Source: Minisyncoccota bacterium | GTDB lineage: Bacteria; Patescibacteriota; Minisyncoccia; Phycocordibacterales; JACRKE01 | Direction: 5' to 3' | Assembly (NCBI GenBank): GCA_041660505.1 | Contig: JBAZWG010000001.1 | Location: forward strand, 115,979-179,978 | DNA length: 64,000 bases | Shown: piece after piece, positions 4,245-57,641 of the stretch | How the letters are laid out: every line of letters starts with the position of its first letter | Position numbering within the stretch: position 1 is the first letter of the stretch | Notes under the pieces: model-generated | What the model was told of the DNA's origin: nothing | Seen by the model: the letters and a program-made list of their open reading frames with translations, nothing else | Database searches by the model: none | Translations under genes and position numbers: made by a program

Positions 4245-4280
4245 GAGGTTCGACCTTAAGCACAAAAAAGGTCGAACCTC
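4245..4280 (+). terminator. Hairpin after rpmG, built from two copies of the 13-bp palindrome (GAGGTTCGACC...GGTCGAACCTC)
   Basis: 11-bp perfect stem with A-rich loop. No strong U-tract. Confidence 0.4.
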
Positions 4281-4345
4281 TGGAATGGTTTCGCATTCTC
4301 TGGTATAGTTAAAAGCGCCGAAAGGCGCTTTGGTGTTTAAATCTT

Positions 4346-4429: not shown

Positions 4430-5434
4430 ATGTTAACCCCGACTAATTGGAAAGATTATGAGCTCATCGACTCCGGTGACGGAATGAAGCTGGAGCGTTG
4501 GGGCAAGTATGTTCTGGCACGGCCTGACCCACAGACTCTATGGCAGAAGGAGCGGCCGGAACTTTGGAATACTGCGGTGGGAGTTTATACGCGTAGTACC
4601 TCCGGTGGCGGCTCTTGGAGGTTTACAAAGGAACTGCCCGAGCGATGGAAGATTTCGTACAAACTAGAAGGCGAGGCCTTCTTGATGCCCAAGGCCTCGC
4701 CTTCTAGTTTGAGTTTCTGGGTGCGCCCGACAGACTTTAAACATACCGGATTATTTCCGGAACAGGCAGTGAATTGGGGCTGGCTGCGCGACACAATAGG
4801 AGCTAGGAGTTTGGAGTTAGGAGTTGGGGCAGAGAAAATTTCCGTGCTTAATCTCTTTGCCTATACGGGGGCGGCAACAGTCGCCTGTGCTTCGGCAGGT
4901 GCTAGGGTGACACACGTGGATGCTTCCAAGGGCGTCGTGACCTGGGCGCGCGAGAACTTAGAGTTAAACCAAGCCTCACCCCTAACCCCTCCCCGAAAGG
5001 GAAGGGAAACTCTCAAGAATCCCCCCTCTCCTTCGGAGAGGGGGCAAGGGGGTGAGGTGAGTGTGCGCTGGATCGTTGATGATGTCTTCAAATTCGTGGA
5101 GCGTGAGGCAAAGCGCGGTGTCAAATACGACGGCATTATTATGGACCCACCATCCTACGGTCGTGGTACCAAGGGAGAGACATGGAAGATAGAGAAAATG
5201 CTCTGGCCACTCGTCAAAGAGTGCGTCACCGTACTTTCTGATAAGCCTCTGTTCTTTTTAATTAACTCATACACATCAGGACTACCCGCAACAGTCATGA
5301 GCAACTTACTTGAGAGCGCGATGAAAGGCAAGGGTGGTAGTGTTCATTCCGAGGAGCTCGGCTTAAAAGGCTCTGCAACGGGAAGAATTTTACCGGCTGG
5401 AGTGACCGCAAGATGGCAGCAAAAGTCCTCGTAG
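4430..5434 (+). CDS. Class I SAM-dependent RNA methyltransferase (RlmI/YccW-like) carrying an in-frame ~84-bp palindromic-element insertion (4974-5057)
   Basis: LNLFAYTGAATVACASAGA...THVDAS SAM-binding motif and IIMDPPSYGRG (DPPxY) motif. The insert encodes SPLTPPRKGRETLKNPPSPSERGQGGEVS. The 3' end overlaps tRNA-Arg by about 10 nt. Confidence 0.7.
   Translation: MLTPTNWKDYELIDSGDGMKLERWGKYVLARPDPQTLWQKERPELWNTAVGVYTRSTSGGGSWRFTKELPERWKISYKLEGEAFLMPKASPSSLSFWVRPTDFKHTGLFPEQAVNWGWLRDTIGARSLELGVGAEKISVLNLFAYTGAATVACASAGARVTHVDASKGVVTWARENLELNQASPLTPPRKGRETLKNPPSPSERGQGGEVSVRWIVDDVFKFVEREAKRGVKYDGIIMDPPSYGRGTKGETWKIEKMLWPLVKECVTVLSDKPLFFLINSYTSGLPATVMSNLLESAMKGKGGSVHSEELGLKGSATGRILPAGVTARWQQKSS
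4974..5057. repeat. Palindromic element family B, copy 1 (inside the RlmI-like gene). 84 bp, a multiple of 3
   Basis: CCTCACCCC...CCCCTCCCCGAAAGGGAAGGG...CCCCCTCTCC-TTCG-GAGAGGGGG-CAAGGGGGTGAGG. The outer arms are complementary. Confidence 0.7.
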
Positions 5435-5496
5435 TCTAATGGATAGAATACTCCCCTCCGAAGGGAGTGATGTGGGTTCGATTCCCGCCGAGGACA
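5425..5496 (+). tRNA. tRNA-Arg (anticodon CCG)
   Basis: GTCCTCG acceptor pairs with CGAGGAC. Anticodon stem CTCCC/GGGAG with loop CTCCGAA. T-loop GGTTCGATTCC. Confidence 0.8.
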
Positions 5497-9220: not shown

Positions 9221-9230
9221 AATCGTGGGT

Positions 9231-9272
9231 GCCGAGGTTCAACCTTGAGCATCTTAAAGGTTGAACCTCGGC
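9231..9272 (-). terminator. Bidirectional hairpin (GCCGAGGTTCAACCTT...AAGGTTGAACCTCGGC) between the 9300..10229 gene end and the clpB start
   Basis: 15-bp stem made of two 13-bp palindrome copies. Located 3' of the minus-strand gene ending at 9300. Confidence 0.4.
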
Positions 9273-9299
9273 AGTCATTAATTGCTCAAACAATCTATT

Positions 9300-15472: not shown

Positions 15473-17272
15473 TTACATTTTTTCTAAAGTTTCGATTCCT
15501 AACAACTTCAGACCATTTCTAATAACCTGCGCAGTGGCGGCGGCAATCGCAACTCGATGCGGCGATTCTGCATCATCAGCGCTAACAATCTGTGTACTGC
15601 CATAAAAGCTATTGAACTCCTGCGCAAGCTGGAGCAAGTAACTTGCAAGATGGTTCGGTGCATAGTCAAGCCCGGCTCGCTCGATAATTTCTGGATAGCG
15701 CGCGATGAGCCGAGCGAGCGAGCTTCCGGGTAAGGTTTCGCCTTCCCCTACAGGGTAAGGCGAAACCTTACCCGAGATTCCTGCCGACTCGGCCTTTCGC
15801 AATAGTGACTGAATTCGGGCATACACATATTGCAAATACGGCCCAGAGTCCCCTTCGAAACTTAGGGATGTGTCGAAATCAAAAGTCGTGTCGGTCGTCC
15901 TGCCAGTGCGCAGAATGCTATATTTAATAGCACCGAGCGCGATGATTTCCAGGGCTTCGTCCTCATTCTCAAACATAAATTTCTCCGCCGGTATCCTAGC
16001 CTTGAGCTCTTTCTTTGTAAGTTCTATCAAGTCGTCAACATATACAATATTCCCGGTGCGCGAACTCATTTTGCCGGAGCCCTTGATGCTCACCAGGCCG
16101 TATGGCAGATGTGTAAAATCCGAAATCTTACCGATACCAAGTTGCTCGCATATCGCGAACACCTGTCGTAATGCCAGCGACTGCTCCGGCCCAACGACCC
16201 AGAACATTTTATCAGCGCGCGTCTTTTCTTTCTTAAGTTTCGTTAAAGCGATATCTTGCGTAATATATAAAGATGTACCGTCGCGCTTCATTAATATAGT
16301 ATCGGGAATCTTGTACGACTCAAGTTTCGAGAGGACTGCGCCGTCTTCAAGCTTAGTAAACACGCTTTTTGCCAATCCCTCTTCTATGTATTTCTTACCT
16401 TCTGCGTAATGCTCGCTCTCTTTCCAGAAGATATCTACACTGCTTCCAAGTCGCTTCATCGTTGCCATTTGCCCATCAAGCACCCAGCCCACAAGTAATG
16501 ACGTTAGTTCTCGAACATATGGTCCGTCCGCATCCCACGCCAAAGTTAGCTCTCTTACTAGTGCTTCGGTTTCAAGATTTTTGAAATCATCAGTGCCAAG
16601 CGTATAATACTGTTCTACGAAACGATCCGGCTTGATGCCCACAGATTCAGGCGTGAGCCACTCTGATTTATTTTCTGCCCAGCCAGCCACAGTCGCCTTC
16701 GTCTCGTCTTTATCATTTCTGCCAAATTTGAGATAGCCCCAGACAAGCTTCATAATGGCTATCCCTCTGTCATTTAAAACGTAGTCTCGCACAACGTTAA
16801 TACCCATAGCTTGCCACAGATTAGAAACCGCCATACCGGTGATGTTGTTGCGCAAATGGCCAAGGTGTAGCGCCTTCGTCGGATTGGCTGAAGTGTGCTC
16901 GATGAGCCAAGTCTTGCCCTTGCCCCAGTCACTTTTGCCATATGCCTCTTTCTCATCAAGAATAGTCTTCAAACTTCCTGCAAAAAACTCCGGTTTGAGA
17001 AATATATTCACGAATCCAGGCCCAGCCACTTCAGCCTTCGCAACAAGCGCGTGCTTCTCGAGTTCGGCTGCAATCTGCTCGCCGATATCCTTAGGTTTTT
17101 TACCCAGCTCTTTAGAAAGTTGCAAAGCAACGTTGGTCGTGTAATCACCGTGCTCGAAAGATTCCGGGTGCGTCAAGGCAACATTCACCTCCCCATCAAA
17201 TCTAGGGAATATCCTGCGTACAATATCCAGCACCTCCCGCGCGAGTTTTTCTCTAATATTTTCCGTCATCAC
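15473..17272 (-). CDS. argS: Arginine--tRNA ligase ArgS, with an in-frame insertion of a palindromic-repeat pair at 15727-15776
   Basis: HLGHLRNNITG (HIGH-type motif), the DALR anticodon-binding C-terminus and MSSRTG (KMSK-like). The insertion encodes GKVSPYPVGEGETLPGS in the C-terminal domain. Confidence 0.9.
   Translation of the reverse strand: MMTENIREKLAREVLDIVRRIFPRFDGEVNVALTHPESFEHGDYTTNVALQLSKELGKKPKDIGEQIAAELEKHALVAKAEVAGPGFVNIFLKPEFFAGSLKTILDEKEAYGKSDWGKGKTWLIEHTSANPTKALHLGHLRNNITGMAVSNLWQAMGINVVRDYVLNDRGIAIMKLVWGYLKFGRNDKDETKATVAGWAENKSEWLTPESVGIKPDRFVEQYYTLGTDDFKNLETEALVRELTLAWDADGPYVRELTSLLVGWVLDGQMATMKRLGSSVDIFWKESEHYAEGKKYIEEGLAKSVFTKLEDGAVLSKLESYKIPDTILMKRDGTSLYITQDIALTKLKKEKTRADKMFWVVGPEQSLALRQVFAICEQLGIGKISDFTHLPYGLVSIKGSGKMSSRTGNIVYVDDLIELTKKELKARIPAEKFMFENEDEALEIIALGAIKYSILRTGRTTDTTFDFDTSLSFEGDSGPYLQYVYARIQSLLRKAESAGISGKVSPYPVGEGETLPGSSLARLIARYPEIIERAGLDYAPNHLASYLLQLAQEFNSFYGSTQIVSADDAESPHRVAIAAATAQVIRNGLKLLGIETLEKM
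15727..15776. repeat. REP family A, tandem pair of hairpin copies (inside argS)
   Basis: CGGGTAAGGTTTCGCCTTCCCC followed by AGGGTAAGGCGAAACCTTACCCG. Confidence 0.7.
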
Positions 17273-17320
17273 ACCATAGTAGCAATACCGAGGTCAGTTA
17301 TCAAACGTGGATATCAATTC

Positions 17321-17363
17321 GGGGTAAGGTTTCGCCTTACCCCGAAGGGCTAAAGCCCGAAAG
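17321..17363. repeat. REP family A copy (intergenic), followed by a small GGGCTAAAGCCC hairpin
   Basis: GGGGTAAGGTTTCGCCTTACCCCG, a perfect 9-bp stem with TTTCG loop. Confidence 0.7.
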
Positions 17364-17427
17364 AAAATTCAAAAACCCAAAGTATCAAAGGGTCAAAGAT
17401 TCAAAGGAAGGCAAAAAGAATAACGAA

Positions 17428-18591
17428 CTAAGCATCCAACTTGCGGGATCGGAAGACCAGCCTGCTGCCAGCACTCCACCTGCTGTCAGGAGAGGCGTAG
17501 CCGTAGCTGAGCCAGCGCCTGCCACCGTCCGCGCTGACGCTCCAGACGCGCGGATCGTCGCCACGATCGGTAATCTGCTTCATGGCCATATAGAGATATT
17601 CTCCCATAGGTTGGTCGGAATATTGGAGACGCAGGTAAACACCTGCTTCAGCGGGTACGAGCTCGAAACCGAGTTCCGCTGCTCTTGTGTAGATTTCATC
17701 AGTCGTTGCACCGTTCGGGAAGCCCAGAGATTCCACTGAAAAGCTAACCAGATTGTATTGTTCTTGTGTGCCGGTAAACTCTGTTTTTGCGAGCATGTCT
17801 TTGGCGTAGTCGCCGACTTCAAAACCCTTCGCCTTGAGTGCTCGCTTCGCCTCTTCTGCATTTGTGATAGTTGGGTCGCCTTCGACGGTTTTCAGGAATA
17901 TACTTTGGTCGGGGAAGCGTTCATAGGCGTGTTTGATTGATGGTGGAAACTTTGCATATACTTCGGGATTCCACGGGCCGATATAGGCGACGGTTTCTGA
18001 AGTAATGGCACTCGGTTCGTAGGCGATTTGTGCAGGAGTACAGTCAAAGAGTACGGGAAGGTCATCCTTTTGGTTGCGCTTCGCCTGTATTTCTTTGATC
18101 CGCGGGTCGCGGTCGTAGCCAAAACCCTCAATTTTTGACTCGATCTCGTAGAGAAAGATAAGGTCTTCTCGGGGTAAGGTTTCGCCTTCCCCCGCCTTGC
18201 GCTCGATGTCGGTGAGGCGCTTCATGTCTGCAGACTTCTTTTTGTACTTGTCTGCTTCGGGGCCGAAGTCTTTTAGTTTCTCGTCGAGCTTTGGAGCAAT
18301 ATGCGGGTCGAAGTTTTGGTCATGGGCAATACCGCGGATTTCACCGATGTGCTCGCCCTGCATGCGGATAGCTAGGCGTGGGACAATCGCTTCGCCCGCC
18401 TCATTGATTGAGTAGTAGAGGTGCATGTCTCCGCCATCTAGGTAGTTTTGCGCAGTGGTAAGATCGGCGATGCACCATTCTAGCGGGTGGCCTTCTAGAG
18501 ATTGTACCAGCTCTGTTGCATCGCCGCCTTGCTTATAGGTAATCCATTTTCCTCGTGTCTCCTGCAAGCCTTCGGTAGAATACTCCGGCAT
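17428..18591 (-). CDS. Hypothetical protein. This is the C-terminal part of a longer reading frame that continues upstream, in frame, to 19347 across a single TAG
   Basis: No internal stops in 17428..18729. The 138 nt upstream of the annotated ATG also translate cleanly (RLEQKAKPKDERTALKNESIKLSDEEFQALLSTENFSKIYAQFLIE-MPEY...). Contains an in-frame REP copy (GEGETLPRED). Confidence 0.5.
   Translation of the reverse strand: MPEYSTEGLQETRGKWITYKQGGDATELVQSLEGHPLEWCIADLTTAQNYLDGGDMHLYYSINEAGEAIVPRLAIRMQGEHIGEIRGIAHDQNFDPHIAPKLDEKLKDFGPEADKYKKKSADMKRLTDIERKAGEGETLPREDLIFLYEIESKIEGFGYDRDPRIKEIQAKRNQKDDLPVLFDCTPAQIAYEPSAITSETVAYIGPWNPEVYAKFPPSIKHAYERFPDQSIFLKTVEGDPTITNAEEAKRALKAKGFEVGDYAKDMLAKTEFTGTQEQYNLVSFSVESLGFPNGATTDEIYTRAAELGFELVPAEAGVYLRLQYSDQPMGEYLYMAMKQITDRGDDPRVWSVSADGGRRWLSYGYASPDSRWSAGSRLVFRSRKLDA
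18171..18196. repeat. REP family A copy (in-frame inside ORF 17428..18591)
   Basis: GGGGTAAGGTTTCGCCTTCCCCCGCC. Confidence 0.65.
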
Positions 18592-18729
18592 TTCAATCAG
18601 AAATTGCGCGTATATTTTGGAGAAGTTCTCGGTGGAGAGAAGGGCTTGGAACTCCTCATCGGAGAGCTTAATGCTTTCGTTTTTGAGGGCTGTTCGCTCG
18701 TCTTTGGGCTTTGCCTTTTGCTCGAGACG

Positions 18730-19347
18730 CTAGCGCAGCATGCCAATTGTAAGAGCAAGTGCTCGTGGGTTGAGCGGGGGGAACGAAGCTACGGAGTCTT
18801 TGGTTCGTTTCTGGAAACGGGCGGTCTCTTTGCCATTTTCACCTTCCTCTTTCTTGAGCTTGCCCATTTCAAGCATAGAGCGGAAGGCCCAGTATTTCGC
18901 CCAGTCGGGGTACTGTGCATCAGACGAGGAAAGGTAGTCGATCCACTTGTTGAGGCTGTGTGTTTGGTTGTTGACGATCTGTTCCGTCTTCTGCTTTTTA
19001 AACTCTTCCGTAATCTCGACATCTCCGTGCCCTAAGTCTCGAGCAATACGTTGTTCTAGCAGAAAAGCTTCTTCGGGAACTTCTTCGGGCTTGATGACGA
19101 ATTTGTCGTTGAGGACGCGCTTCAAGGCCTCGATACCGCGCTCTTTGCCTTCGGGTTCTTCACGATTTAGAATTTCATTGAAACGGTCAAGGTAGTTTTG
19201 AATGCGTTTAAGGGGCTTTTGTGAGACTTTTTCACCCGTTCGTATTTCTGTGCGCTTGGCAGCAGAAGCCACCTCTCCGCTGCTGTGGAGAGCGCTATAT
19301 TTTTCTTTGAGAAAGGCTGGGTTTTCTTCGGTAGGGAATTTTTCCAT
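18730..19347 (-). CDS. Hypothetical protein. This is the N-terminal part of the same frame, ending at an in-frame TAG at 18730-18732
   Basis: Same reading frame as 17428..18591 (both lower bounds give the same remainder modulo 3). Possibly a pseudogene, a read-through gene, or a sequencing error. Confidence 0.45.
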   Translation of the reverse strand: MEKFPTEENPAFLKEKYSALHSSGEVASAAKRTEIRTGEKVSQKPLKRIQNYLDRFNEILNREEPEGKERGIEALKRVLNDKFVIKPEEVPEEAFLLEQRIARDLGHGDVEITEEFKKQKTEQIVNNQTHSLNKWIDYLSSSDAQYPDWAKYWAFRSMLEMGKLKKEEGENGKETARFQKRTKDSVASFPPLNPRALALTIGMLR

Positions 19348-19392
19348 GAGAAGAGTATATCAAACGCCAAAATTGACGCAAATTTATCTATC

Positions 19393-19416
19393 GGAGTAAG
19401 GCGAAACCTTACCCCG
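19393..19416. repeat. REP family A copy at the 3' flank of the RAYT gene
   Basis: GGAGTAAGGCGAAACCTTACCCCG, with the loop in opposite orientation. Confidence 0.7.
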
Positions 19417-20089
19417 AATATGGATATTTTGGCTTTTTCTCTTTTTCGCCTATTAGCATTGTGGCGACTTCGCTGAAGTCTCCCTGCTCTATAAGCCATT
19501 TAAAATAGTTATTTGGAATCTTGGTATAATCTTTCAGAACCTCCGGATTTAGGATCTTATTTTTTACAAACTTATTGTCGTACGCTTTAGCACTTGAGTA
19601 TTGATACGTTTGTAGCACAGACTCTCTTGGTAAGAAATTCTTCATCTCACAGGGATTTAGGTGGATGTAATCTATAATTTTCAGCAAGTATTCTTCATCG
19701 GTTATCAGCTTACTTTTAAATACTCCTTGAAAAAGTGCGCCGCTCCGCCCATACTTTTCGTTAAAATACATTGTGTAGGCAGTGCCGAGCCGTTGCATAA
19801 ACTTACTGATACCTCCCTCATAAATTTCGTGGAGGAGTAAATGAAAATGATTCGGCATAAGGCAGTATGCCATTACCGCAACAAGTGGTTTATGGTCAAT
19901 ATCTTTTTCTGCTTCTTCTCCTTGCGATTTTATCAGACGACTTGGACTTTCCACTTCACGATCATTGAGCAAATACAGATACTTTAAAAACAACTTGCGG
20001 TCAGCATTGGACAGAAAAATATCGCGCTTCTCGGTTCCGCGATTATAAACATGGTGAAAAGATTCTAATTCAATAGGTACACGCTCCAT
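19409..20089 (-). CDS. IS200/IS605-family Y1 (HUH) transposase of the REP-associated tyrosine transposase (RAYT) type
   Basis: FHHVYNRGTEKRDIF, CLMPNHFHLLL (HUH) and YIHLNPCE (catalytic Tyr region) motifs. Flanked at 19393-19416 and 20108-20137 by the GGGGTAAGG-TTTCG-CCTTACCCC hairpin repeat. Confidence 0.75.
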   Translation of the reverse strand: MERVPIELESFHHVYNRGTEKRDIFLSNADRKLFLKYLYLLNDREVESPSRLIKSQGEEAEKDIDHKPLVAVMAYCLMPNHFHLLLHEIYEGGISKFMQRLGTAYTMYFNEKYGRSGALFQGVFKSKLITDEEYLLKIIDYIHLNPCEMKNFLPRESVLQTYQYSSAKAYDNKFVKNKILNPEVLKDYTKIPNNYFKWLIEQGDFSEVATMLIGEKEKKPKYPYSG

Positions 20090-20107
20090 TTCCCCATTAT
20101 ACCCTTA

Positions 20108-20137
20108 TTCGGGGTAAGGTTTCGCCTTACTCTGGGG
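20108..20137. repeat. REP family A copy at the 5' flank of the RAYT gene
   Basis: TTCGGGGTAAGGTTTCGCCTTACTCTGGGG. Confidence 0.7.
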
Positions 20138-33554: not shown

Positions 33555-33595
33555 TTCAAATTATTCACAGCCTCCCAACTTCCAACTCCTATCTC

Positions 33596-34225
33596 CTAAC
33601 TCCTATTATATTCCCCCATTGCTCTATCACGGCCTTCGGTGATTATTGCCGTAAGTGCTTCTGCCGCTCTCTTGGCGATTTTCTTGAACTCTTCGGATTC
33701 AGCTTTAGAAAATTTGCCTAATATAAGATCAATGACCGCATCCTCGCCTATCGGCTTTTTGAGTTTGCCGGACGGCGTTACCTTCGACACGCCAACACGC
33801 ACGCGAGTGAATGCTTCAGATCCTAGAACCTTCACTACAGACTTGAGCCCGTTATGCCCGCCGGGACCACGATTGTACGAAACTCGTAAAGTACCAATCG
33901 GCAGGTCAATGTCATCGTGCACGATAATTAAATTCTCGTAAAACTTTTTACCTTTCGTGATCTTGCGTCCGAGCAAAGTCGGACTTACTGCCCCGACGCT
34001 CTTTCCGGAATTATTCATGAACGTCTCTGGTTGCATGAGCAGTACACCGATCCTTTCAACTTTCCCCTTTGTAACTTTCGACTGTGTCTTTTTATCACTC
34101 TCCCATTCAGCCAGCTCATAAACTTTCCTAAATTGCTCAAGCACAATCCGCCCGACATTATGCCGCGTCTGTTCGTACTCTTCCCCCGGATTCCCCAAAC
34201 CCACGATTACAAAGTTTTTTGCCAT
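33596..34225 (-). CDS. pth: Peptidyl-tRNA hydrolase
   Basis: VIVGLGNPGEEYEQTRHNVG, IIVHDDIDLPIGTLR, GGHNGLKS. Confidence 0.9.
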   Translation of the reverse strand: MAKNFVIVGLGNPGEEYEQTRHNVGRIVLEQFRKVYELAEWESDKKTQSKVTKGKVERIGVLLMQPETFMNNSGKSVGAVSPTLLGRKITKGKKFYENLIIVHDDIDLPIGTLRVSYNRGPGGHNGLKSVVKVLGSEAFTRVRVGVSKVTPSGKLKKPIGEDAVIDLILGKFSKAESEEFKKIAKRAAEALTAIITEGRDRAMGEYNRS

Positions 34226-45346: not shown

Positions 45347-46957
45347 ATGGTTCTCTTTATCGTAGCGATGATTCTGGTTTGCGGTCTCGGCAACATCGGC
45401 TGTGACCCTGCGGACTTCCCGCAGGCGCAGTCTGGCATCCAGCCCGCTTCGACCAGCTCGTGCTGGCCGTCGCAGGTTATGACAGCCACGGTGGCCGAGG
45501 TCGTTGCCCACAACAATCCTGCGACGGTCAGCCAGACCATCGCAGGGAGAATCGGGCAGGACTTCGGTGGTATCGTCGTCGACGCGACCGCAGCACGACG
45601 AGACATTGAGGTGTGGTCGTTGGTTCAAGTTATTGAGACGACCAACGGCGCCATGCCGACGATGCTTACAAACCTGCAGATGTTCAAGGGCACAGCGCCG
45701 TTGAACACAGGATCGGCGATTGCGAACCCTAGCACCTCCGCAGTGCTTGTGGTCTTCGACCAGCCGGTCTATGTCCCCCATGGGACGGTCGCGACATTCG
45801 CGACCAAGGCCAACGTTTCGGCGGCGGCACCTGTCGGTGCGAAGTTCTCACTTCGCAATGCCGGTGTTGTCGCATTCGAGGCCGGTGGTGGCCCACTCGT
45901 TCCAGTTGCGATTGACCGAACCACTGCGGGAAATACGGTCACAGTCGTTCGCTCTGGCCTTGCGCTAGGTACCGACACGTCCTCGCCTAGCTACCAACAA
46001 GTGGCTGGCGGGACGGTGAACGTCCTTGCGACGGTCGTGAAGTTCCGGGCAACAAGCGAGAACGTGAGGCTTCAGCGCCTCTATCTCGCTCTGGTTTCCG
46101 GGAGCACGTCCAGTATCGTGCAGGGTACAGTCTGGTTGGGCTCCGCGCAAGTTGGGTCGGTAACGTGGACGGGCGTGAGCACGCGTGCAACTTGCACGCT
46201 TGACTCACCCGTGGACATCCCCGACGGTCAGGATGTGCCGATGATTGTCCGAGTTGACGTGGCACCAATCGGCGTCAACCAACCCGGCCGGTCCGGCGAG
46301 CTCATCAGGCTCACCGTAATCGGCGCCGACGCCATTGGCCTCGAGTCCGGCGAGTCGGTCACAGCAACTGGCTCGGCAGAATCGATGGGCTTTCGCACGT
46401 ACAAGTCCGTGTCCACCATCTCGCTCGACTCGCTCCCCACGCAGGGAGCAACGGACGGGCGGTTGATGCGGTTCAAGGTCGCGGCCAACCCGCTTGGCAG
46501 CATCGGACTTGCGAAATTGAGCTTCCGGGTCAATACGACCGGTTGCTCGACTTCGGGTTTTAGTCTGACAATGTATGGGGATCCTGGTTACGCTATTACG
46601 GTGGGTAGCGGTGTGTTCAAGGCCACCGGTGCAACGCCAACGAGTTCCGGCCTCGTCGAGATTCTCGGCGAGCCAACCATCAATGCCGCCGCCGGAACTC
46701 AAATGTTCTTCGAGCTCCGAGCAAATGTGGCACCGAGTGGAGTGGATTACTCGGTGGTCACGACCTTGCTCGGAGAGACTGCGCCCCTGCCGCCAGCAGG
46801 GATGTCTTCGGCTCCGGAGGTCGACGGCCACGGCGGGCGCTTCATCTGGACGCCGAACAGCCTCTTCCAGTCCGGTCTCGTAGACCTCGACTGGACGAAC
46901 GGGTTCGGGGTACTGGGTCTGCCCTCGAGCGGGCTCGCCCAAGTCCGTACTAACTAA
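45347..46957 (+). CDS. Secreted surface/adhesin-like protein (lipoprotein signal, Ala/Thr/Gly/Val-rich beta-rich), GC-rich island
   Basis: Signal peptide with VCGLGNIGC. 536 aa, low complexity, beta-strand-like. No enzymatic motif. Confidence 0.5.
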   Translation: MVLFIVAMILVCGLGNIGCDPADFPQAQSGIQPASTSSCWPSQVMTATVAEVVAHNNPATVSQTIAGRIGQDFGGIVVDATAARRDIEVWSLVQVIETTNGAMPTMLTNLQMFKGTAPLNTGSAIANPSTSAVLVVFDQPVYVPHGTVATFATKANVSAAAPVGAKFSLRNAGVVAFEAGGGPLVPVAIDRTTAGNTVTVVRSGLALGTDTSSPSYQQVAGGTVNVLATVVKFRATSENVRLQRLYLALVSGSTSSIVQGTVWLGSAQVGSVTWTGVSTRATCTLDSPVDIPDGQDVPMIVRVDVAPIGVNQPGRSGELIRLTVIGADAIGLESGESVTATGSAESMGFRTYKSVSTISLDSLPTQGATDGRLMRFKVAANPLGSIGLAKLSFRVNTTGCSTSGFSLTMYGDPGYAITVGSGVFKATGATPTSSGLVEILGEPTINAAAGTQMFFELRANVAPSGVDYSVVTTLLGETAPLPPAGMSSAPEVDGHGGRFIWTPNSLFQSGLVDLDWTNGFGVLGLPSSGLAQVRTN

Positions 46958-46987
46958 ACTGTGCGAGGTTGAACCTCGCACAGTTTG
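46957..46987. terminator. Hairpin (AAACTGTGCGAGGTTGAACCTCGCACAGTTT) at the right border of the island. Contains the 13-bp palindrome
   Basis: 12-bp stem around a self-complementary core. Confidence 0.45.
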
Positions 46988-47848: not shown

Positions 47849-49174
47849 TTATTTACGTCTCCAAGAGGGCTTAAAGCCGCCATGCCCGCCACCACGTCCG
47901 CCATGTCCGCCAAATTTTTGTGATTCATAAGGGCGTTCTTTGATAGTGCTCTGGCGTGCCGGCGGGAGATCTTGCGGCTTGGATTTCTCCGGCAGGCGCT
48001 TCTTGGTCAAACGTTCGATGGTCTGTATGTCACGGCGCTCATGATGCTCGGCGAATGAGATTGCCTTGCCCTCTTTACCCGCGCGGCCGGTACGGCCGAT
48101 GCGATGGACGTAATCCTCGGCCGAGTCCGGTAGGTCATAATTAATAACAAGGCCGATGTCGGAGACATCGATACCGCGCGCAGCAATGTCTGTCGCCACC
48201 AAGACGCGATATTTACCTTTCTTAAATCCGAGCAAGGCCTCTGTGCGCTGTGAGAGAGATTTATTGGAATGAATATCCGTCGCCGTATGACCCATGTCTT
48301 GGATATGTTTGGCGAGTCTCTTGGCACCGTGCTTGGTGCGTGAGAAAACGAGTATCGTGCCCGGGTTGTCGGCAATGAGCTTCTCGAGCAAGCGCGATTT
48401 CTCTTCTTTCGTAACGAAATAAATTTCTTCAGAAATTTTTGCAACAGTCGTGCCCGATGTGGCAACCTGTACCGTTTGCGGTGCGTGCAGATAGGCCTTC
48501 GCCATTTGAGCAATCTTGTCCGGCATCGTGGCCGAGAAAAGAAGCGTCTGATGTACCTTCGGGATCATCGCGATGACGGTGCGAATCTGCGGCTCGAATC
48601 CCATATCAAGCATTCTGTCGGCTTCATCGAGAATTAATATCGAGACTTGGGATAGGTCAATCGTCTTCTGGCGAATGTGGTCATTGATACGGCCGGGGGT
48701 AGCGACTATCACGTGCGGATTCTCGCGGAGCTTGCGCATCTGGGCACCCATGTTGGCACCGCCGACGAGCATGGCGGTTTTAATTCCTAAATCTTTTCCG
48801 ATAGCAACAAGCTTCTCGTCCACCTGGGCGGCGAGCTCGCGCGTGGGCAAGAGCACTAGGCCAGTGCCCTTGGTCAAGGCTAGGCGCTGGAGCATCGGCA
48901 GACCGAAGGCGAGCGTTTTGCCTGTGCCGGTCTGGGCGATACCGATGATGTCCTTGCCAGTTAACACAACCGGTATGGCCTGCGCCTGGATAGGTGTCGG
49001 GTTGGTAATATTGAGCTTAGCTAGAGTATTGGTGAATACCGGAGCGAGGCCGAGGTCGGTGAAGGTTACTGAACCAACCGTAGAAGGTTCAACCTTTTGG
49101 ACCTGCCCGACAGTGCCAGTCATTGGCAGGCGGGTGCCTAAGGTTGAACCTTGGGAAGTGGTGTTTTGTGGCAC
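47849..49174 (-). CDS. DEAD-box ATP-dependent RNA helicase with Gly/Arg-rich C-terminal tail
   Basis: Q-motif FTDLGL...PTPIQ, AQTGTGKT, DEAD, SAT, HRIGRTGRAG. The real start may be the Met at ~49123. Confidence 0.9.
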   Translation of the reverse strand: MPQNTTSQGSTLGTRLPMTGTVGQVQKVEPSTVGSVTFTDLGLAPVFTNTLAKLNITNPTPIQAQAIPVVLTGKDIIGIAQTGTGKTLAFGLPMLQRLALTKGTGLVLLPTRELAAQVDEKLVAIGKDLGIKTAMLVGGANMGAQMRKLRENPHVIVATPGRINDHIRQKTIDLSQVSILILDEADRMLDMGFEPQIRTVIAMIPKVHQTLLFSATMPDKIAQMAKAYLHAPQTVQVATSGTTVAKISEEIYFVTKEEKSRLLEKLIADNPGTILVFSRTKHGAKRLAKHIQDMGHTATDIHSNKSLSQRTEALLGFKKGKYRVLVATDIAARGIDVSDIGLVINYDLPDSAEDYVHRIGRTGRAGKEGKAISFAEHHERRDIQTIERLTKKRLPEKSKPQDLPPARQSTIKERPYESQKFGGHGGRGGGHGGFKPSWRRK

Positions 49175-56381: not shown

Positions 56382-57641
56382 ATGATTATTTTAGCTATCG
56401 AAACATCTTGCGATGATACTGCGATAAGCGTGGTTGAGGCCACGGGCGGTATTGACGCGCCTGATTTTAAAATACTTTGCTCTTTGGTATCATCGCAAAC
56501 TGCCTTGCACGCCGAGTGGGGCGGGGTCGTGCCGATGCTTGCCAAACGGGAGCATGAACGAAACCTGCCTCTTTTGTTAATTAGGGCTCTTGAAGAATTT
56601 GGACATGAGATGTCCAAGAATCAGACATCTCATGTCTTAGACCCCGAACTCAAAGCAGAAATAGAGAAGATTCTTGTACGAGAGCCTGATTTACTTAAGT
56701 CGGTTTTCGATTCTGTTGTTCAAATTCAGAGGCCGAAGATAGATGCTATCGCCGTGACTTATGGCCCAGGGCTGGAACCCGCGCTCTGGAGCGGGATAAA
56801 TTTTGCAAAAGTGCTTGGCTTACTCTGGGACGTGCCGGTCATCCCGACAAATCATATGGAGGGACATGTCGTTTCCGCCTTACTGGGCGGAAACGAATTT
56901 TCAAGTTCCAATTTTCAATTTCCAACATTGGCACTGCTTGTCTCTGGGGGCCACACAGAACTCGCGCAAATTAACAACTGGACCGATTATAAAATCCTGG
57001 CACAGACGCGCGATGATGCAGCGGGTGAGGCATTTGATAAAGTCGCGCGTATTTTAGGATTACCCTACCCCGGCGGCCCGGAGATTGCCAAACTTGCGTT
57101 ACAAGGTGTCGCCGATGATGAGGTGAAGCTCCCCCGACCGATGATACATTCGAAAGATTTAGATTTTTCTTTTTCCGGCCTTAAGACTGCAGTGCTGTAT
57201 TTAGTGCAAAAGATTAACCCCTCCCCGACCCTCCCCGAAGGAGAGGGAGAAAACACAGAAACTTCTGGTTTGAGTTCCCCCTCTCCTTCGGGGAGGGGGC
57301 AAGGGGGTGGGGCTGAATTATCTTTGCAAAAAAAAGCGAATATCGCGCGCGAGTTTCAGAATTCTGTCGCAGAGGTACTCGTGCATAAAGTTGATAAGGC
57401 ACTTGGCGCCCAGGGCGCCAAGTCATTCATCATGGGTGGCGGGGTGACAGCCAACGCGCACATCAGATCGGAGATTACGAAAATGCTCGAGTCTAAGTAT
57501 CCTGACATGAGAATTTTCATCCCCGATAAAAAATATACGACCGACAACGCAGCAATGATAGCCGGTGCCGCCTACTTCCGGATCATCACAAAAACCGTGC
57601 CGAAACTGGAAAAAGCTGAAGGCAATTTGAAGTGGGAGTAG
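56382..57641 (+). CDS. tsaD: tRNA N6-adenosine threonylcarbamoyltransferase TsaD, with an in-frame ~96-bp palindromic-element insertion at ~57217-57312
   Basis: ILAIETSCDDTAISVV, HMEGH and SGGVTAN motifs. The insert encodes NPSPTLPEGEGENTETSGLSSPSPSGRGQGGGAELS. Confidence 0.9.
   Translation: MIILAIETSCDDTAISVVEATGGIDAPDFKILCSLVSSQTALHAEWGGVVPMLAKREHERNLPLLLIRALEEFGHEMSKNQTSHVLDPELKAEIEKILVREPDLLKSVFDSVVQIQRPKIDAIAVTYGPGLEPALWSGINFAKVLGLLWDVPVIPTNHMEGHVVSALLGGNEFSSSNFQFPTLALLVSGGHTELAQINNWTDYKILAQTRDDAAGEAFDKVARILGLPYPGGPEIAKLALQGVADDEVKLPRPMIHSKDLDFSFSGLKTAVLYLVQKINPSPTLPEGEGENTETSGLSSPSPSGRGQGGGAELSLQKKANIAREFQNSVAEVLVHKVDKALGAQGAKSFIMGGGVTANAHIRSEITKMLESKYPDMRIFIPDKKYTTDNAAMIAGAAYFRIITKTVPKLEKAEGNLKWE
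57217..57312. repeat. Palindromic element family B, copy 2 (inside tsaD)
   Basis: CCCCTCCCCGACCCTCCCCGAAGGAGAGGGAG...CCCCCTCTCC-TTCG-GGGAGGGGG-CAAGGGGGTGGGG. Same orientation as copy 1. Confidence 0.7.

Follow-up and report, generated by a model that had tools for sequence, protein, structure and literature searches.

Two short segments of a patescibacterial genome, each translated in frame within an unrelated protein gene, appear from their sequence to be inverted pairs of the known class of G/C-rich triplex-motif repeats (BoxC/PIT/TMECO), in a register-shifted variant. Both lie in a 64-kb stretch of DNA, here called the window, from the genome of a member of Candidatus Paceibacterota (Patescibacteria, or candidate phyla radiation, CPR; source contig 719,008 bp), a tiny groundwater bacterium whose minimal genome has almost no intergenic space. 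Copy A sits in the gene for a methyltransferase of family PF10672, while copy B sits in tsaD. Beyond the window, motif pairs of this kind and polarity enclose open reading frames (ORFs) encoding DUF559 endonucleases. The best explanation for the window copies, and in our estimate a reasonably probable one, is that they are empty, translated derivatives of such DUF559 cassettes.

The inserts are inverted pairs of triplex motifs

A preliminary description of this DNA, made from the letters alone, had proposed that the two segments are homologous members of one repeat family, and closer comparison confirmed this. Copies A and B have in common an exact 32-mer (CCCCTCTCCTTCGGRGAGGGGGCAAGGGGGTG) that does not occur again in the window and was matched in 0 of 100 shuffles, with 0 matches expected by chance, and a MAFFT alignment gave 77% column identity over ~120 nt. 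The blocks described for both, namely CCCCTCCCCGAA(A)GG, a spacer, CCCCCTCTCC-TTCG-G(A/G)GAGGGGG and CAAGGGGGTG(A/G)GG, were found in the sequence. The self-complementarity claimed for them exceeded that of shuffled controls: by Watson-Crick folding, both copies formed long hairpins with z = -3.6 and -6.0, and none of 200 shuffles was equally stable. Both copies also have the same orientation, on the plus strand within plus-strand ORFs, with lengths that keep the frame. The encoded peptides are PSPSERGQGGE in copy A and PSPSGRGQGGG in copy B. The positions of the copies, their halves and their host genes are given in Table 1.

Table 1. Host genes and component parts of the two inserts, by position in the window
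Feature	Position	Strand	Description
Host gene of copy A	4430..5434	+	334-aa S-adenosylmethionine-dependent methyltransferase, PF10672; best solved relative 2igt
Host gene of copy B	56382..57641	+	419-aa TsaD, PF00814
Copy A, whole	4974-5058	+	In frame within PF10672 methyltransferase
Copy B, whole	57218-57312	+	In frame within tsaD
Copy A, left half	4974..5006	-	Reverse-complemented triplex motif; minus strand reads CCCTTCCC-TTTC-GGGGAGGG-GTTAG-GGGTGAGG; from class II finder and sequence
Copy A, central spacer	5007..5020	+	~14 nt, between the inverted motifs
Copy A, right half	5021..5058	+	Triplex motif CCCCCTCTCC-TTCG-GGAGAGGGGG-CAA-GGGGGTGAGG; translated PPSPSERGQGGEV
Copy B, left half	57218..57247	-	Reverse-complemented triplex motif; minus strand reads CCCTCTCC-TTC-GGGGAGGG-TCG-GGGAGGGG; translated in tsaD as NPSPTLPEGEGE
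Copy B, central spacer	57248..57276	+	~29 nt
Copy B, right half	57277..57312	+	Triplex motif CCCCCTCTCC-TTC-GGGGAGGGGG-CAA-GGGGGTGGGG; translated SPSPSGRGQGGG

The motif is built of a C-rich block, a short loop and the Watson-Crick complement of the first block (G block 1), followed after ~3 nt of loop by G block 2, a mirror image. The left motif of each window copy is reverse-complemented and the right motif is direct, so that the whole copy is also a long palindrome. We scanned the window with our own implementation of the class II triplex rule of Holder et al., which calls for a pyrimidine block, a complementary purine block and a mirror purine block, with mirror pairing G·G-C, A·A-T or T·A-T, stems of >=8 nt, loops of 1-6 nt and at most one mismatch per pairing. 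All four half-elements passed with stems of 8-11 nt and loops of 1-5 nt, as did two E. coli TMECO controls, and the four were the only G/C-rich class II matches in the 64 kb on both strands. The strict TMECO consensus, CCCTCNCCC-N3-6-GGGNGAGGG-N3-GGGNGAGGG, had no match in the window because the register is shifted to CCCCCTCTCC / GGAGAGGGGG / GGGGGTGAGG, which makes the element a variant and not TMECO proper. When hairpins were collected with a pattern that omits the third block, 100 of 123 nevertheless carried it, and position 3 of G block 1 equalled position 8 of G block 2 in 99 of these 100 (Fisher 5e-11, kinship ignored). This mirror covariation suggests that the third block is real and gives indirect support to a triplex motif.

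The preliminary description had taken the family to be undescribed, which does not hold. Holder et al. 2015 reported 23 copies of such motifs in E. coli K-12, always intergenic and including five inverted pairs, with TMECO found in proteobacteria only, and tied the E. coli motifs to local genome instability (PMC4666352). The window copies resemble BoxC/PIT/TMECO in the three-block architecture with T opposite A in the mirror block, in loop sizes, in their occurrence as inverted pairs, in strong conservation across copies, in wide distribution and in having no transposase nearby. There are many similar copies, with two pairs in 64 kb and at least 120 loci in GTDB genomes carrying an exact 22-mer of the motif. 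Unlike the E. coli motifs, both window copies are register-shifted and in frame within CPR genes, and an association with DUF559 is unreported for that class. The repeat class itself is a known one; new relative to PMC4666352 are the shifted register, the CPR host and the in-frame genic location.

Database searches with the element returned little. At gathering thresholds Rfam reported tRNAs only, with no family or intron match for the element. A HMMER search of the 36-aa insert against 1.84 billion representatives recovered only itself and one tandem-repeat ORF (P0241), as low complexity defeats HMMER here. P0241 is a predicted 263-aa 'protein' made of tandem motif-like peptides (SPSPLWGEGRGEGIARRGLFSL...) and is probably the translation of an array of related repeats.

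Both pairs are old in-frame insertions

Comparison with orthologues and solved structures bore out the proposal that the segments are in-frame insertions in two unrelated genes. The methyltransferase has ~25 extra residues between positions 197 and 203 of the 2igt chain; among its homologues, the insert is present in P0122 (72% identity) and missing from P0124, P0125 and all distant ones. TsaD has ~33 extra residues between positions 219 and 230 of E. coli TsaD (4ydu), present at the same codon in P0002-P0004 (72-79% identity) and missing from P0005-P0008 and more distant homologues. Length differences between orthologous copies are always multiples of three, and no copy interrupts the host frame. 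Since the segments are missing from some close orthologues, they are insertions and not ancestral protein sequence. It had been suggested beforehand that orthologues with the segment at the same position would argue against mobility. Such orthologues do exist, in relatives at 72-79% protein identity and at the same codon, and so do equally close relatives without the segment, which points to old insertions and not to immobility. In a neighbour-joining tree of TsaD built without the insert columns, the seven close relatives were monophyletic in 200 of 200 bootstraps, with a star-like internal order. Ancestors of a Paceibacterota subclade acquired the pairs, in tsaD and in the methyltransferase gene alike.

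Structure prediction makes the TsaD insert a disordered loop. In an AlphaFold2 model of the protein (pTM 0.81), residues 282-308 are coil with pLDDT < 50, between helices 265-278 and 315-344. The excess of ~80 aa over E. coli TsaD noted in the preliminary description is correct in size, although the element supplies only ~30-36 aa of it. Separately, TsaD residues 75-118 (window 56604-56735) form a ~40-aa insert relative to E. coli TsaD that is present in 15 of 15 aligned homologues, distant ones included; it is a trait of the homologue group and unrelated to the repeat. As for the claim that both host genes are essential, it is plausible for TsaD, while nothing here shows essentiality for the PF10672 methyltransferase.

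The DNA of the motif is conserved beyond what the host proteins require. For the four tsaD carriers, identity at third-codon positions is 52-53% in the gene compared to 90-93% in the right-hand motif, and the arms show compensatory changes (CCCCGAAGG/CCTTCGGGG in the window, CCCCCAAGG/CCTTGGGGG in the relative L002). Because of this excess at synonymous sites and the compensatory arm changes, conservation of the motif is not due to the encoded peptide.

The motif is widespread and often genic

To follow the motif outside the window, a 22-mer (CCCCTCTCCTTCGGRGAGGGGG) was scanned against one genome per GTDB species, which gave at least 120 loci. They include Desulfobacteraceae (dozens in one metagenome-assembled genome), Chitinophagaceae and other Bacteroidota, Moduliflexus, Ignavibacteria, Planctomycetota, Patescibacteria and Saccharibacteria. 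An architecture frequent among the listed loci is CCCCACCCC-NN-CCCCTCCCC-GAAG-GGGAGGGG, a loop, and CCCCTCTCC-TTCG-GGAGAGGGG-NN(N)-GGGGGTGAGG. Stop-free stretches of >=900 nt contain 36 of 123 motif copies. Genic copies confirmed by Pfam lie in leucyl-tRNA synthetase (LeuRS) of Bacteroidia (SPSPSERGQGGEV), in LeuRS of Ferruginibacter in a different frame, in Patescibacterium LeuRS on the antisense strand, in Patescibacterium serine hydroxymethyltransferase and in a response regulator. Of the motif's six reading frames only one contains a stop, which would have helped in-frame survival. The 22-mer was also looked for in IMG/VR, where only 2 contigs carried it, so that phages are no obvious vehicle.

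The same motif pairs bracket DUF559 endonuclease genes

Several LeuRS genes have widely separated motif halves with a DUF559 domain between them (PF04480, a Vsr-like PD-(D/E)XK domain; E = 1e-30 to 1e-32), in the position taken by the central spacer of copy A. By tblastn, 11 DUF559 places were detected in the 120 listed motif loci, mostly with a motif on at least one side. We then examined the association from the other direction, with 80 metagenome loci picked by DUF559 protein similarity alone and afterwards searched with the motif finder. A motif lay within 350 nt of the DUF559 domain in 67 of the 80 loci and on both sides in 44, and motif density was 2.67/kb close to the domain compared to 0.27/kb farther out in the same loci. 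The motifs were inverted in 40 of the 44 two-sided loci, 24 of them with the polarity of the window copies (C..G) and 16 with the opposite one (G..C).

Several other findings concern the cassettes themselves. First, the DUF559 domain was in frame within long ORFs in 28 of the 80 loci; the ten of these ORFs that were scanned with Pfam comprised LeuRS, valyl- and isoleucyl-tRNA synthetase (ValRS, IleRS), tRNA-guanine transglycosylase (TGT), acetyl-CoA synthetase, RecG, MeaB, a class-V aminotransferase, HsdM and a UvrD-like helicase. No Hint domain was found in these ten ORFs or in the host ORFs of the window. Second, the left end of a patescibacterial LeuRS cassette, L017 (ATTAACCCCACCCCCGACCCCCTCCCCGAAGGAGAGGGGG; INPTPDPLPEGEGE), is closely similar to the left half of copy B (ATTAACCCCTCCCCGACCCTCCCCGAAGGAGAGGGAG; INPSPTLPEGEGE) at the level of DNA as well as of the peptide. 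Third, one LeuRS site, between PLAxxxW and TMPGxAGSSWY, is occupied by a full cassette in seven loci, whereas another locus (L035) has a solo motif there. Lastly, in the region 1,351,200-1,351,760 of E. coli K-12, the DUF559 gene ycjD ends with SPSP and its stop codon in a motif-like hairpin, and just downstream of it lie TMECO no. 9 and an apparent remnant of a second DUF559 3' end, seemingly a partial copy of that of ycjD. Among 5426 complete E. coli genomes, 3377 have the ycjD region. Records without ycjD had fewer TMECO-9-like places, a comparison of no evidential weight since it used a spread sample of 25, which is too small, and ignored kinship. In one of the cassette loci, L134, the LeuRS-like open stretch with the DUF559 cassette also gave a NUDIX hit at residues 542-657 (E = 2.6e-14).

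The Vsr/DUF559 clade includes a proven homing endonuclease (PMC3424549), and the Vsr-like homing endonuclease I-Bth0305I has been discussed together with 'fractured genes' (PMC2677866; PMC3424549). In the literature that we searched, mostly outside subscription journals, we found no published link of the encoded peptides or of DUF559 to BoxC, to mobility or to in-frame insertion, and no description of DUF559 cassettes in frame in housekeeping genes.

Origin of the window copies

Taken with the shared ends, the bracketing of DUF559 genes by the same motif pairs suggests that the window copies are empty derivatives of DUF559 cassettes. They may be non-autonomous cassettes that arose by deletion or moved in trans. 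The DUF559 nuclease, whose activity is predicted, would make a DNA break, and the unit would be copied into new sites by recombinational repair. With so little intergenic space, the survivors would be only those in tolerant loops, with a length that is a multiple of three and in one of the five stop-free frames. The element itself would most likely be selfish or neutral and would not serve a host function. A more far-reaching version, which we offer tentatively as a possibility and would not call probable, is that the inserts are empty relics of an undescribed class of selfish elements, in which a DUF559 cassette bounded by inverted triplex-forming repeats lies in frame in housekeeping genes and is retained without a splicing domain, and of which BoxC, PIT and TMECO would be the non-autonomous derivatives.

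A number of observations weigh against a cassette origin. No target-site duplication or other transposition footprint was seen when the DNA of filled and empty sites was compared. The four carriers of the TsaD insert were monophyletic in 0 of 200 bootstraps of the star-like tree, and their distribution would fit one old gain with later losses or repeated gains. By tblastn, no DUF559 homologue is present in the 64-kb window or in the relatives L001-L009; no DUF559 protein from the source contig was among the best 120 protein-database hits; and no TsaD or methyltransferase orthologue with DUF559 at the insert site was seen among the homologues. The 80 DUF559 loci are the closest relatives of a motif-adjacent copy, so the association may hold for a subfamily only. 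In E. coli, the motifs form a stable triplex in vitro with none detected in vivo, and no mobility genes lie near them (PMC4666352).

In the main rival explanation, which we consider rather unlikely, the motif pairs spread and persist without DUF559. They could do so, for instance, through template switching, through gene conversion from one copy to another or through illegitimate recombination at non-B DNA. DUF559 genes would be a selfish element of their own that homes into the centres of pre-existing pairs, and the window copies would never have had an endonuclease. Most motif loci indeed lack DUF559, as the 11 places in 120 listed loci indicate, E. coli has 23 motifs and one DUF559 gene, and the window has none. 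The occurrence of both flanking polarities likewise fits insertion into or beside existing repeats. However, a motif-first origin leaves near-identical motifs in unrelated genes and phyla unexplained, and in many conserved genes the cassette and both motifs form one unit, for which movement of the whole unit is simpler.

It is improbable that the inserts are kept because the host makes use of them, be it through a Pro/Ser/Gly loop with a function in the proteins or through an mRNA or DNA structure by which tsaD and the methyltransferase gene have their expression tuned. Retention at the same codon over 72-79% protein identity, the strong nucleotide conservation and the compensatory changes would all agree with such a use. 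Against this, the same sequence recurs across many phyla, both in unrelated genes and between genes, equally close relatives lack the insert or have unrelated hairpins at its site, the insert loop is predicted to be disordered, and PIT motifs have neither promoter nor terminator activity in E. coli (PMC4666352).

The preliminary description had linked the element to the RAYT, an IS200-like Y1 transposase, encoded in the window. A REP/REPIN-like element moved by this enzyme, with the shared CCCCGAAG as its recognition site, is very unlikely. The window does contain a RAYT-like Y1_Tnp ORF (19409..20089), and CCCCGAA is present in both the triplex-motif element and the other repeat family, family A (TCGGGGTAAGGTTTCGCCTTACCCCGAA); the claim of a motif shared between the families is right to that extent, but it is a 7-mer only, and short. 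Family A has at least five copies in window 15725-20136, and the RAYT is bracketed by two inverted copies of it, not by the triplex-motif element. Tblastn detected no RAYT homologue in the 858 kb around 123 motif copies from many phyla. On these grounds we reject RAYT mobilisation of the element.

Removal of the segment before the mature protein, by RNA splicing, translational bypass or protein splicing, hardly comes into consideration: the long hairpin would juxtapose the two junctions, but the orthologous copies are all multiples of three and open in the host frame, the proteins have host domains only with no Hint or intein domain, and the segment has no Rfam match.

Comparison with other mobile repeats

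Rickettsia palindromic elements (RPE), reportedly described by Ogata et al. in 2000, are short palindromes in frame in unrelated conserved genes. They are translated as extra surface segments and have no transposase of their own, and the window elements are likewise in-frame palindromes in unrelated genes, at loops. The likeness, for which the preliminary description had suggested a comparison, is one of behaviour only: the inserts are translated, lie in a loop and, as modelled for TsaD, leave the host fold undisturbed. RPE differ in organism and sequence and are not triplex motifs, and given the BoxC-type match sequence homology of the window elements to RPE is unlikely. To our knowledge, RPE do not bracket an endonuclease gene.

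REP/REPIN-RAYT systems are also short interspersed palindromes, of which family A and the Y1_Tnp gene are a true example in the same window; in contrast, the triplex-motif element does not flank the RAYT and, in the 858 kb searched, does not accompany RAYTs elsewhere. As with homing endonuclease genes and inteins, the DUF559-bearing relatives are in frame at conserved sites of housekeeping genes (aminoacyl-tRNA synthetases, RecG, TGT), but the DUF559 cassettes are bounded by inverted triplex motifs and the window copies have no endonuclease. The window copies do not combine a Hint domain or intron ribozyme with an endonuclease; as splicing domains (Hint included) and intron ribozymes are lacking, the inserted residues are apparently retained. 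Miniature inverted-repeat transposable elements (MITEs), such as Correia elements and cyanobacterial Nezha, are similarly short, non-coding and bounded by inverted repeats, outnumber their coding partner and are sometimes in frame. The element differs from them in having no target-site duplication and in that a small nuclease of the PD-(D/E)XK type, instead of a DDE transposase, is its candidate partner. The DUF559 cassettes may be the coding partner with shared ends that a MITE would have, since they are flanked by the inverted motifs too and L017 resembles copy B at its left end; in the part of the source genome that was searched, no such partner turned up.

Other palindromes and neighbouring genes in the window

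Perfect hairpins (stem >=10 nt, loop 3-14 nt) are frequent in the window, with 16 found compared to ~0.7 expected from Markov simulations. Three further hairpins are in frame in tsaD, at variable loops (56602-56637, 56869-56897 and 57401-57424). At exactly the codon of the triplex pair, relatives without it have other perfect hairpins, in tsaD of L006 and L007 and in the methyltransferase gene of L009 (CTTGGAGGC..GCCTCCAAG, AACTGTGCGAGA..TCTCGCACAGTT and CACTTGGCGCTCCGAGCG..CGCTCGGAGCGCCAAGTG); two of these stems recur in the window, at 46956-46987 and 57401-57424. The same loops therefore seem to have been hit repeatedly by different small palindromes.

A perfect palindrome at 4660-4712, with 21-nt arms and a 10-nt loop (CAAACTAGAAGGCGAGGCCTT...AAGGCCTCGCCTTCTAGTTTG), is also in frame in the methyltransferase gene (LEGEAFLMPKASPSS). 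An insert at this site is lacking in 2igt and in almost every aligned homologue, while P0125 and P0126 have unrelated ones. A heptamer-like repeat, CTCCCAACTCCTAACTCCT with its complement, occurs three times in the window. Its copy at 4798-4828 is in frame in the methyltransferase (RSLELGVGA), where 2igt is 7 residues shorter, and those at 2654-2707 and 33572-33618 are in short stop-free stretches and apparently intergenic. A double copy of family A (15727-15775) is in frame in the ORF 15473..17272 on the minus strand, which resembles arginyl-tRNA synthetase by sequence motifs (..GKVSPYPVGEGETLPG..). One further hairpin family, with the stem GAGGTTC(G/A)ACCTT, was found at 4245-4281, 9230-9274 and 49084-49152, the last within a 1326-nt stop-free stretch on the minus strand. 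The tRNA-Trp gene ends 11 nt upstream of the start codon of the methyltransferase gene, and that for tRNA-Arg(CCG) (window 5425-5496) overlaps the final 10 nt of the methyltransferase ORF (stop 5434).

Implications

Repeats of the BoxC/PIT/TMECO class are numerous, strongly conserved and associated with genome instability, yet their function, origin and means of spread are not known, and their origin and spread have gone unexplained since the 1990s. The window adds to this class a repeat in shifted register that is translated within protein genes of a minimal CPR genome, and whose motif DNA is conserved well past coding needs. Following the motif across phyla yields a testable candidate for the means of spread, a small Vsr-like endonuclease bracketed by the repeats. 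If it is right, the elements would have an intein-like lifestyle without protein splicing and would quite generally supply bacterial proteins with loop insertions. In genome annotation, they would account for the recurrent segments of the 'PSPSERGQGGE / PLPEGEGE' type and for over-long housekeeping proteins in metagenome-assembled genomes.

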